Of a DNA stretch of 5,039 bases, positions 765 to 3,967 are shown in pieces. The first letter of the stretch is position 1, and each line of letters starts with the position of its first letter. Source of the DNA: a virus. Its lineage: Duplodnaviria; Heunggongvirae; Uroviricota; Caudoviricetes. The translations under genes and the position numbers were made by a program. The stretch lies in IMG/VR virus record IMGVR_UViG_2695420685_000008; one strand, written 5' to 3'. The notes under the pieces were generated by a model, which saw only the letters and a list, made by a program, of their open reading frames with translations, was not told the DNA's origin and made no database searches.

Positions 765-3700
765 TACCACAACCCCATTCTTACACGTAATTTATTATTG
801 TTATCGTAGATCTGAATAAGGTTATTACTGATAACCATCTTACCTGTGCCACCAGATCCATTAATATAGAAAGTACCTGATTTATTTATCTGCCATCCTG
901 TAGAGTTGGCAACATAGTTAGTACTTTGTATCGTGGCACCAATTTTCGCATTGGTAATTTCACCATCGATAATTTTTGCTGCATTAATACTGGCATTGGC
1001 AATTTTCGCATTTGTGATCGCTGCATCTGCGATGTAACCAGTACCGATACTTGCCGCCTGAATCATGGATGTTTTGATGTAGGTAGTACCATTCACGATT
1101 GAGAATGGAGCCGTACCGCCTACTGTCGCCGCACTACTGCCGCTGACAATAAATTTATCTGCTGCGAAATAGATAGCACTGTTGTTACTCGTTCCCTGAG
1201 AAGCAACAAGACGGATACCCGCTACAGTACCGTTAGCATTGACGGACAATGAGTACTGGCTGTCTACAGTGCTTGCAGTTGCCTTTGTACTCATCTGCTG
1301 GTTAACCGTGGCAATCTGCCCGTTCACATCACTACGTAGCTGTGTAACTGCCTGTGATTGTGCTGTGTCATTATCCGCTACAGTCTGATTTAGATTTGTT
1401 ATGCTTGCCGTGTTTCCGTCTACCGTGTTTTTCAATGTAGAGATTTGCGTATTGGTGTATTCATTACTTTCATTAACTGCATTTTCAATTGTCTCATTCA
1501 GACGATCATCGAGATCAAGTATTCCATTAATCTGTTCTGCATCATCTTCCGTAAACTGGTATTTGCTGTTAATGCTGACCGTCTGCTCTGCCGAGTACTG
1601 AATATTGTCCTGTCCAAATACATCAAAGAATCCGACCTTAACTTTATATTCTCCATCTGGAATGTTGGGTATACTGTCAAATTCAGGTTTATTACTGGTG
1701 TAGAGTTTAGTACTCGTACCATTAACAATACTCACTACTGCCCCGGCATAATCCCTCTCAGTCGATGGAGTCCATGAGGCGAATAAGTTGCTAAACCCGC
1801 CAGTGAACTGAACACCCTGCACTAATCCACATTGTTTATTCTCAACGGTAATTCGTACTTCCTGTGAATAAGTACCATTGTTGAATCCCTGAGCAATAAT
1901 GCCAATAGTAGGTTTACGCACTCTGAGTCGGTTCATTTCAAGCGTAAAGTTGAATGTATTGCTCTGCGTATAGAATGTATCGATTAAATCACTACCGTTA
2001 TAGATATTAATGGTGTAGTACTTGAAGTAATCAGAAAATGAGCGACCATTAACGATTAAATTCTTCTGATTATCCCAACGGATATTGAAATCAGCAGAAT
2101 CAGTTTCATATTGCCCCACGGTGCGATTTGCCAGTACGACACCAGTTACGGAAGGTAATGCAAAGTTATATGTCGGCACTAATCCCGTTAACGTTAGTCT
2201 GTTACTCGTAAGGCCGAGATTGTTATATGCCTCAACCCCAAAGTCATAAGCCGCAGTGTCTGAGAGGCCGAATAGTTCAAAGTCGGTTTTCTGGGTATTA
2301 GTACTTCCCGCATACGTCCAAGTACCGGAACTACTCAACTTATAGTAGATGTAATAACCCCGTAGCCACGGATCTTGTGACGCATCCCATGTGAGATCGA
2401 CAAGGGAGCCGTTTGTTGTGTTACCTTTGCGTACTGCCTGTAGGTTCGTGGGAGCCTTTACGCTTAGTTCGGGAAACTGGATTGAACCGCCAGGTGACCA
2501 GATACCGGGATCTACGCCATCGTACATTGCATCAGGGGCTTCAACTGCCGTGATTGTAACGTACCCAACGTTCTCCTGATCGGTTGCCACTTCTTTTGAC
2601 AGTACCTTAAACTTCCCTGAAATATTCAGTTCAGTATTGCTGACGTTGATCGCATCCCATACCTTCAGATCCCAGCCTTCACTTGTGGTGAAGGATACAA
2701 TACGTAAGGCGTACTTAGCCTTGAGTACATCAACATTGACCATCTTCGCCAGTACATCAGCGTCATAGCACCAAGAGTAATCACGGCTTAGGGTAATAAC
2801 CTGCCCGTCACGCTGAATTGCCTCATCAATCGTAATATCGGAAGGAATGCGTAACACGTCAGTCGTGTACATACTGGCTGGATTGGTGTACTTCGCATCA
2901 ACAGTATTGAAGTAGTCTGTGCCGCCGCTGGTACTGATCTGTACTGCACCAAACATGTTATTTTCATTGAATGATGCAACCGAAAGCGTTTTACGATCCG
3001 TCGTAATACAGATTTGCCCTGCATGTACATACATAATACCGCCAAATACCTGACAGATATTTTCAATGTTTTCCTTGTACGAGCTTTGATAGCTAATTGA
3101 ACCATTAGCGTAATACTCCATCTGGTCACAATACGCTGCGGTTTCAAGGAAGGTATCGAGATTAATTAATCCCGGTTCAATTCCCATCCCGTACGTTGTA
3201 TTGGTCAGATAGTCGTAGATAATTGATGGTGGATTTGACGTCGCCAGTACTGACCCTGTTACGAGGTCTAATATTCTCTGACCTTTCATTTCAACAGTCA
3301 TCGTGAACTGATCATTCACAAGAAGATTCTGCTCTAATGATTGTTGTGTTTTTTTAATAACCGCACTGACAGAAACAATGCCTTTACCAAGAAACTTATT
3401 TGTCCACTTCGGCCCGGCGTATTGGCTTGCAAGAGATTTAGTACTGGTATAATCGCCACCAAACCGTACTTCAAGTTGTAGATATTCCTGATACTTACTG
3501 GCAATATTCGCCTTTGGTACAATACCATCCTGAGTGACCGGAACGGCTAATACTGGTTCATTATCAATATAAATCTGGTTTATATTCTTTTCAGTTCCCG
3601 CGTAGCATATTGCCTGTTCACTGAATAAGTACTGTGAATCACTGTTTGGGATGTTATACCATGAGACAATACTCCCCGTGAGAATAAACGAACCGCCCGA

Positions 3701-3967
3701 TACCCCATTTTTATGGGGAAGTTGCCCACCATACAGTACTGGTAATCCAGTGGTAGGACTCGTTGACCTGCTGAGTGAATCCGTTACATCCCCATAACTC
3801 TGAACGCCAATCTGCCCCAGCATACTTGTTGCAACAAGGCTTGCAGCACCTGCCGCAGCCCCCCAGCCAATCGCGGCTAATGCCGTACCGCCAGTGAAGT
3901 AAACCGCCAAAGCGACAATGACTGCCGTAATTATTGCTCCAAAGAAGCCCCCTAAACTTTTCCCCAT
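764..3967 (-). CDS. Central tail fibre / tip attachment protein J-like (host specificity protein), with an N-terminal gpI-like domain
   Basis: 1067-aa ORF with ATG at 3967..3965 and TAA at 766..764. aa 259-282 (YGMG...YCDQ, nt ~3110..3193) match the conserved lambda gpJ N-terminal signature (RYGMGKRLG...YCDQSV). aa ~500-800 contain three fibronectin-III-like modules (e.g. [28 protein letters not shown]...[12 protein letters not shown]). aa ~930-975 ([14 protein letters not shown]...[21 protein letters not shown]) resemble lambda J [44 protein letters not shown]. aa 1-105 are Gly/Ala-rich and hydrophobic with LPVLYGG, like the lambda gpI C-terminal domain. Candidate Shine-Dalgarno AAGGAA at 3982..3977. 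Confidence 0.9.
932..1042 (-). repeat. In-frame short tandem repeats encoding a repeated (A/I)-x-N-A-(K/S)-I peptide near the J C-terminus
   Basis: The 13-nt string caattttcgcatt occurs at 940..952 and again at 1000..1012 on the plus strand, with related copies between (gcattggtaat, gcattaatact, gcattggcaat). Reverse-complemented these encode [29 protein letters not shown] at J aa ~982-1010. Confidence 0.6.

Follow-up and report, generated by a model that had tools for sequence, protein, structure and literature searches.

A phage tail hub protein that probably carries a homolog of the C-terminal half of lambda gpI at its N terminus, in a tail tip cassette without ubiquitin-like and JAB domains

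INTRODUCTION

In the tail tip of phage lambda, residues 101 onward of the protein gpI comprise a pair of helices (H1 and H2), a plug, and strands threaded between the hub domains of gpJ (PMC11101478). The plug lies at residues 159 to 175, and three copies of gpI together with three copies of gpJ hold the C terminus of the tape measure protein; binding of LamB opens the hub, and the gpI helices have been proposed to enter the outer membrane (PMC11101478, PMC10721106, PMC12617516). In lambda, cryo-EM has placed a gpI trimer within the tip lumen, where it blocks the channel beneath the C terminus of the tape measure protein (PMC11101478, PMC10721106). Taken together, gpL and gpI along with the N-terminal portion of gpJ have been equated with the single-chain protein pb3 of phage T5 (PMC10721106). 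Here, we analyze a 5,039-nucleotide (nt) stretch of DNA, hereafter the window, from the virus record IMGVR_UViG_2695420685_000008 (Caudoviricetes) in the IMG/VR database. It encodes a J-like tail hub and central fiber protein of 1,067 amino acids (aa), hereafter J, whose N terminus is probably a homolog of the C-terminal half of gpI.

The C-terminal domain of gpI-type proteins, TAPI-C, was defined in 2006 by Iyer, Burroughs and Aravind, who also described some prophages in which TAPI forms a fusion with TAPJ or TAPK and predicted cleavage of the ubiquitin-like domain (Ubl) from TAPI by the JAB domain of TAPK (PMC1779556). A further design is found in the megatron protein of RcGTA and phage R4C, in which the channel is closed by N-terminal iris or penetration helices, for which entry into the outer membrane is predicted (PMC7296036, PMC10276861).

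RESULTS

The N terminus of J aligns with the C-terminal half of gpI

All long open reading frames (ORFs) of the window lie on the minus strand, to which the coordinates of all coding features given below refer. J is an intact ORF at 764..3967, and its first 105 residues are encoded by 3653..3967. A first-pass annotation, made from the DNA letters alone, had likened these residues to the Gly/Ala-rich C-terminal half of gpI and taken the I-like segment to be fused to J; the sequence that it quoted is exact. Our comparisons favor the same assignment, and we estimate a probability of roughly 0.8 that residues 1 to ~105 are a homolog of the C-terminal half of gpI (TAPI-C) that is made within the J chain.

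The assignment rests mainly on comparisons between sequence profiles. Using hhalign, we compared an alignment of residues 1 to 450 of the window family with a diverse gpI alignment (17 sequences, comprising 12 from phages of several bacterial genera and 5 from close lambda relatives) and obtained a match of residues 2 to 110 to gpI residues 96 to 217 at 93.4% probability (E = 2.4e-7). The corresponding comparison with close gpI relatives gave 94% (E = 1.4e-7), and at a permissive alignment threshold the match was colinear from residues 1 to 98 against gpI 95 to 222, with GLPVLYGG placed on VLPVLYGE. The aligned blocks read G-K-S-GG-F, F-T-G-G-T-LAA-GWGAA, and LPVLYG. These scores depend on residue order, as shuffling the first 60 columns 100 times yielded hhalign scores of 20.4 ± 2.7 (maximum, 28.8) versus 48.3 for the real order, and the reversed alignment scored 12. 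In addition, the non-hydrophobic part alone (residues 57 to 140) matched gpI 176 to 222 at E = 0.01.

Comparable results were obtained with a hidden Markov model (HMM) of the gpI C-terminal half. When run with no composition correction, it gave the window sequence 23.9 bits versus 4.0 ± 2.3 bits (maximum, 15.9) for 1559 shuffles, and 73 of 78 family members outscored every one of these shuffles. The same HMM also recognized homologous N termini that bridge the two families: DCP80 scored 27 bits (HMM positions 18 to 116), P0147 21 bits, and CRP-406 15 bits, with shuffle maxima of 7.5 and 10.9 bits. When 1.84 billion proteins were searched with HMMER, the window profile in turn matched P0147 (E = 8.4e-5).

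PHROG profiles gave weak matches (E = 0.0086 to 0.24), all of which fell on profile positions of the gpI C-terminal half. In phrog_31, lambda J aligns from position 263 and gpI residues 54 to 209 occupy positions 132 to 276, while the window N terminus falls on positions 177 to 313 (E = 0.0086); in phrog_28576, it falls on positions held by the gpI C-terminal half. The makeup of both profiles is of interest in its own right. The first 262 positions of phrog_31 hold gpI-like sequence, which suggests that this profile includes I-J fusions, in agreement with the fusions noted in 2006, and gpI lies at positions 187 to 393 of phrog_28576 (profile length, 399), which suggests that the latter includes K-I fusion proteins. 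Pfam found no match in residues 1 to 105, a result that is uninformative since the Lambda_tail_I model (PF06805) covers only gpI residues 14 to 97, i.e., the ubiquitin-like domain.

Layout of the N-terminal module

The module opens with a hydrophobic helix (residues 5 to 25; 3893..3955) whose 19-residue Kyte-Doolittle mean reaches 2.28; AlphaFold2 places a helix at residues 7 to 24 with low confidence, and the segment aligns with gpI 99 to 118. A second hydrophobic helix follows at residues 29 to 52 (3812..3883; AlphaFold2 helix, 30 to 49), where LAAIGWGAA is aligned by hhalign with LAAWGAA of gpI. Next comes a polar linker with hydropathy below 0 (residues 53 to 73; 3749..3811), positioned like the plug and linker of gpI, which carries an S-R-S-T-S-P pattern conserved in the family and aligns, with gaps, with gpI about 150 to 187; by its position, it may act as a plug. 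The strand motif GLPVLYGG (residues 74 to 81; 3725..3748; AlphaFold2 strand, 77 to 79) aligns with gpI 188 to 195, and its residues G74, P76, G80, and G81 are invariant in the family. The junction between I-like and J-like sequence is formed by strands within residues 93 to 105 (3653..3691; AlphaFold2 strands, 95 to 98 and 101 to 105), which hhalign pairs with gpI 198 to 210 (RVGSRVVSQEI). For J residues 1 to 480, the AlphaFold2 model has a mean predicted local distance difference test (pLDDT) score of 58.7, with residues 100 to 320 at 62 to 91.

The chain continues into a J-type hub and fiber protein

No stop codon lies between the hydrophobic N terminus and the J-like body, and past the module the 1,067-aa ORF is a J-type hub and fiber protein; the first-pass annotation had likewise read the chain as running on into J-like sequence. 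As a whole, J matches phrog_31 ("central tail fiber J") at E = 1.5e-62. The hub domains (residues 106 to 480; 2528..3652) were identified by hhalign, which aligned residues 220 to 372 with lambda J 231 to 415 at 98.4% probability, and by Foldseek, which matched the model of residues 1 to 480 to hub proteins of T5 (pb3, 2.4e-14), phage Chi (1.5e-9), lambda (gpJ, 1.2e-6), and T1 (3.7e-6), as well as those of DT57C and JBD30. The alignment to the lambda J N terminus that the first-pass annotation had drawn reappeared as a weak second hhalign match (residues 117 to 144 versus lambda J 27 to 57; E = 0.09). Pfam Phage-tail_3, at residues 294 to 445, scored 21.4 bits, just below its 23-bit cut-off.

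Further along the chain, residues 505 to 586 (2210..2455) form a fibronectin type III domain (Pfam fn3; E = 1.7e-5; 25.3 bits at a cut-off of 25), and residues 824 to 1067 (764..1498) comprise a C-terminal coiled region and tail tip fiber domain. The latter was assigned by Pfam PF09327 (Phage_Tail_Tip; E = 3e-21) and by phmmer, which matched residues 824 to 1065 to the J-like fiber proteins 9l9p_S, 9ze4_N, and 7z4b_EA in the PDB. The lambda-type C-terminal receptor-binding domain PF12421 had no match in the window J, while lambda J matches it at 4.5e-74.

The fused form is conserved across genera

The J start codon (ATG) is at 3967..3965, with AAGGA ~10 nt upstream, and its overlap with the stop of the preceding DUF6950 ORF measures 16 nt (3952..3967). 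This overlap is 8 nt (ATGGGTAA-type) in most relatives, and in the window DUF6950 has a few extra C-terminal residues.

A survey of related genomes for separate versus fused I, which the first-pass annotation had called for, found the fused form with the same start in six genomes, 72 of 80 viral contigs, and four cultured phages. An identical copy of J is present in E. coli 14EC007. Relatives with 58 to 97% protein identity occur in six genera (Buttiauxella, Pluralibacter, Scandinavium, Phytobacter, Pseudescherichia, and Serratia), all of which begin MGK..GG(F/I)(F/L)GAI and continue, unbroken, into the same long protein. Among 80 IMG/VR loci retrieved through DUF6950, J begins with the module in 72; the other 8 are cut short or have a decayed J 5' end. 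Wherever it could be computed, the ratio of nonsynonymous to synonymous substitution rates (dN/dS) was 0.05 to 0.10 in residues 1 to 56, 57 to 110, and 111 to 330 alike, with synonymous sites being saturated. Purifying selection thus spans the junction between I-like and J-like sequence. Since the relatives share both the start and the continuous chain, and dN/dS is 0.05 to 0.10 throughout, a missed stop codon or frameshift is excluded. The proposed fusion therefore stands insofar as an I-like segment lies in the J chain; what does not stand is the notion of a local event, as the architecture is lineage-wide in the relatives.

Some relatives carry damaged J genes. J is either split into two ORFs (218 + 845 aa and 914 + 147 aa) or decayed in its 5' part in several of them (L004:10001-13205, L007:10001-13203, and L058-L062 around 5388-6062), indicating that many copies of this prophage family have been pseudogenised.

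The module-bearing J belongs to a tail tip cassette that lacks Ubl and JAB

Because the window is a truncated remnant, the absence of a separate I gene can be judged only in relatives. Seven intact or nearly intact loci share the gene order tape measure (~740 to 810 aa), distal tail (185 aa, pb9-like), L-like (207 aa), DUF6950 (~131 to 135 aa), and J (~1000 to 1100 aa), and in the window and relatives alike, DUF6950 is followed by J without an intervening ORF. The same cassette with a hydrophobic J start was found in Escherichia phage DCP80, JenP1, Vibrio phage 2.058.O, Roseobacter phage CRP-406, and Yersinia phage PY54.

A Ubl HMM, built from 17 gpI-family sequences, found nothing in any frame of the window, 11 related loci, or the 80 viral loci, while recovering lambda I at 1.6e-29. 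Similarly, an HMM of lambda-type K found nothing in any frame of the 11 related loci and 80 viral loci and recovered lambda K at 7.6e-81. Pfam did not find PF06805 anywhere in J, including residues 1 to 105. As judged by these searches, neither a separate I gene nor a ubiquitin-like domain is present in the window or in the intact relatives searched, as the first-pass annotation had stated for the window. Among 11 sampled phages with a separate I gene (besides lambda), a lambda-type K lies directly upstream of I, with J downstream, in all but Moraxella phage Mcat1, in which the position of K is unclear (10 of 11).

The two genes upstream of J were assigned differently from the first-pass annotation, which had counted them as counterparts of lambda K and L. 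The gene in the K position (3952..4368; 138 aa) encodes a protein that Pfam recognizes as DUF6950 only. In this family (134 to 138 aa), the whole model is one NlpC/P60-like domain with conserved Cys and His, in keeping with an NlpC/P60 (C40) peptidase, and no JAB domain is present. It does not match the K HMM, and hhalign gave a probability of 3% against lambda gpK. A literature search found no article mentioning DUF6950. The L-like gene (4353..4943; 196 aa; phrog_2048, tail protein) has an N terminus truncated by IS5, with the loss of ~17 residues relative to the 207-aa full-length relatives. Its family profile matches T5 pb3 residues 36 to 170 (hub domain I) at E = 9.5e-5 and, weakly, the RcGTA-type hub N-terminal domain PF09931, so this neighbor is a hub-domain-I protein related to the N terminus of pb3 rather than a lambda-type L.

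Collectively, the locus is a member of a widespread four-gene tail tip cassette consisting of a distal tail protein, a hub-domain-I protein, an NlpC/P60-only peptidase, and a module-bearing J. It lacks the gpI Ubl as well as the gpK JAB domain, which is consistent with the two being a functional pair.

Escherichia phage APCEc02, an rV5-like myovirus (L106:2821-6420), combines a contractile tail with the same distal tail, tail protein, DUF6950, and J cassette; its J N terminus has no hydrophobic helices and keeps the xVVYG strand, a pattern that would fit loss of plug or penetration helices when the complex is not at the DNA exit. DCP80 (PQ671644.1, L002), which among cultured relatives comes closest to the window J (30% identity across 95% of the protein), is classed as Straboviridae and has T4-type genes (motA and a nucleoid disruption gene) beside the siphophage-type tip cassette; it is either an unusual genome or a chimeric record.

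The window is a prophage remnant

The window ends in an IS100 (IS21-family) end at 1..126, with 100% megablast matches to IS100kyp/IstB ends, and in an IS5 end at 4924..5039, with 99 to 100% megablast matches to annotated IS5 copies. With an insertion sequence end at either edge, the window represents what is left of a prophage truncated on both sides. Downstream of J are two small ORFs, at 465..770 (phrog_7961) and 109..456 (phrog_4524; 115 aa), the second of which is cut by the IS end and represents half of a protein that in relatives has ~215 aa and a DUF8377 domain. Their order is kept in all intact relatives, and they may be tip or fiber accessory proteins. Plus-strand antisense ORFs inside 3651..3897 were set aside as mechanical by-products. 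Rfam returned nothing on either strand of the window, and an NCBIfam search nothing relevant.

Among 5,426 complete E. coli genomes, the window DNA is present in one, 14EC007 (NZ_CP024131.1 2146168-2174705), where the element lies between mipA and yeaG, adjoins a serine recombinase gene, and is likewise broken by insertion sequences; no match was found in a plasmid collection. The 14EC007 copy is cut by an IS3 insertion at a different point (window position ~4662), and the two copies have therefore decayed independently.

DISCUSSION

Homology or another origin of the module

Several observations weigh against a relationship between the module and gpI. A BLASTP comparison of residues 1 to 140 with gpI was not significant (E = 0.29), with the alignment falling in the right place (the window lead-in on GAKSGGVFQIVL at gpI residue 96), and the similarity lies mostly in a low-complexity hydrophobic region. 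A tblastn search of phages with residues 1 to 105 yielded no match either, owing to low-complexity filtering. Under the default composition correction of HMMER, the window scored only 7.4 bits, above the 99th percentile of shuffles and below their maximum, and adding the most divergent family members lowered the hhalign probability to 86%. A HMMER profile of residues 1 to 143 did not find gpI among PDB chains, and a profile of residues 1 to 92 found no standalone gpI among 1.84 billion proteins; all but one of the 17 matches in the latter search were N-terminal fragments or lay at the N terminus of J-like proteins, the exception (P0141) being repetitive and probably spurious. The AlphaFold2 pLDDT is below 50 for residues 1 to 73, and the model thus says nothing on how the module packs. 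Moreover, the R4C megatron N terminus had no significant match to the window-family and gpI profiles: it scored within its own shuffles on both HMMs, and hhalign gave a colinear alignment at 1% probability (a single megatron sequence was used).

These results bear above all on a scenario in which the hydrophobic helices evolved independently as a channel-closing or penetration segment of the RcGTA megatron type, the likeness to gpI being due to composition and a short strand motif. That the match is seen by profile-profile methods only, that composition-corrected HMMER is marginal for the window, that the large HMMER search lacks a standalone gpI, and that the gene cassette is closer to those of RcGTA/R4C and T5 than to that of lambda would all suit such convergence. 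We nevertheless regard it as unlikely, since the order-specific score is far above composition-matched shuffles, the helices and the PxxYG strand provide two distinct, colinear matches, the full length of the gpI HMM (positions 18 to 116) is matched by DCP80 and P0147, and the module sits exactly at the position of lambda gene I, between the peptidase gene and J. Less probable still is an ordinary N-terminal signal or inner-membrane anchor of J unrelated to the tail channel: residues 5 to 25 are strongly hydrophobic and lie at the extreme N terminus, as such a segment would, but they contain no lipobox and no cysteine, they are conserved at the start of the tail hub proteins of many phages with the hub strand always next, J must be assembled in the cytoplasm, and the homologous lambda gpI helices are seen inside the tip (PMC11101478). 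As for an artefact, in which a missed stop, a frameshift, or a deletion in a degraded prophage joined a separate I to J, the IS-bounded state of the window and the broken J genes of some relatives (L004, L007, and L058-L062) could be cited in its favor. It is effectively refuted by the same start and unbroken chain in six genera, 72 of 80 viral contigs, and several cultured phages, by purifying selection across the junction, and by the absence of a Ubl-coding remnant in any frame; we likewise rejected a local fusion through prophage decay, as intact relatives share the architecture. From the sequence comparisons, we conclude that the homology between the module and the gpI C-terminal half appears real but remote, being detectable only by profiles or intermediate sequences.

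A possible role in the tail tip

Alongside the homology, continuous frame, conserved gene order, joint absence of Ubl and JAB, and folds reported above, the solved structures of lambda gpI and of the RcGTA/R4C megatron N terminus suggest, by analogy, how the module might work. Three copies would lie in the lumen of the trimeric tip cone, under the C terminus of the tape measure protein, and close the channel as a plug, with the PxxYG strand leading from the module into the hub domains. Receptor binding would then open the hub and release the helices toward the outer membrane, into which they may insert and help form an exit pore.

The first-pass annotation had suggested that fusion would deliver the I-like segment in a fixed 1:1 ratio with J. 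Such a ratio is not a new consequence, as lambda already has three gpI per three gpJ (PMC11101478).

Significance

Full I-J fusions have been known since 2006 (PMC1779556), and the window is accordingly a variant of a known design with no new mechanism. What the present analysis adds is a widespread lineage that has TAPI-C only, built into J, with Ubl and JAB both missing. That the gpI Ubl and the gpK JAB are absent together agrees with the old prediction of the two acting as a pair. Tentatively, and with more doubt than confidence, we raise the idea that TAPI-C is a module for channel plugging and penetration that is general to two-piece siphophage hubs and normally forms part of the hub protein itself, in which case the free-standing gpI of lambda, with a Ubl handle and paired with the JAB domain of gpK, would be derived. 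If this were true, the joint absence of Ubl and JAB would be natural evidence that the pair serves only for delivery or processing of a separately supplied module, and the processing of gpI by gpK, as predicted in 2006, could thereby be tested directly.

In addition, our analysis links the C-terminal half of lambda gpI to hub proteins that bear their own plug, and it offers a function-level annotation for an N terminus that had none in a large protein family, whose members are labeled "central tail fiber J" or "tail fiber" and come from, among others, the cultured phages PY54, JenP1 (genus Nonagvirus), several Vibrio phages, and roseophage CRP-406. DUF6950 is assigned as well, as an NlpC/P60-fold protein associated with the tail. 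These assignments may be of practical use in phage annotation and in the design of experiments on lambda I, K, and J.

Comparison with known systems

Like lambda gpI, the window module has a G-K-S-GG lead-in, two Gly/Ala-rich helices, a polar linker, a PxxYG strand, and a second strand, and it is located between a peptidase gene and the hub body of J. Unlike gpI, it has no N-terminal Ubl (PF06805) and is not a separate polypeptide, and its hydrophobic region is ~10 to 15 residues shorter; nothing in the window J corresponds to the last ~10 residues of lambda gpI or to the first ~20 of gpJ. The DUF6950 gene occupies the same position as that of lambda gpK and its product has a modeled NlpC/P60 fold, whereas it lacks the JAB/MPN domain of gpK.

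The TAPI-TAPJ fusions described in 2006 (PMC1779556), which are also implicit in phrog_31, resemble the window in having I-type sequence within the J chain. They keep at least part of the Ubl, whereas the window has TAPI-C only, and its partner peptidase has no JAB domain.

With RcGTA g12-g15 and R4C, the cassette shares the order of distal tail protein, hub-domain-I protein, small cell-wall peptidase, and large hub/fiber protein. As in the megatron, J starts with Gly/Ala-rich hydrophobic helices (predicted at residues 7 to 24 and 30 to 49), and the R4C N terminus is similar in design to the window module. The window differs from both in that its peptidase belongs to the DUF6950 family and its C-terminal fiber is lambda-J-like (PF09327).

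T5 pb3, the best structural match to J residues 1 to 480, also has a plug that closes the tube. Unlike the window J, pb3 has hub domain I within its single chain, and the pb3 plug is inserted within the hub-domain-II insertion rather than at the N terminus. The window arrangement is thus intermediate, with hub domain I made as a separate protein and the plug module joined to J.

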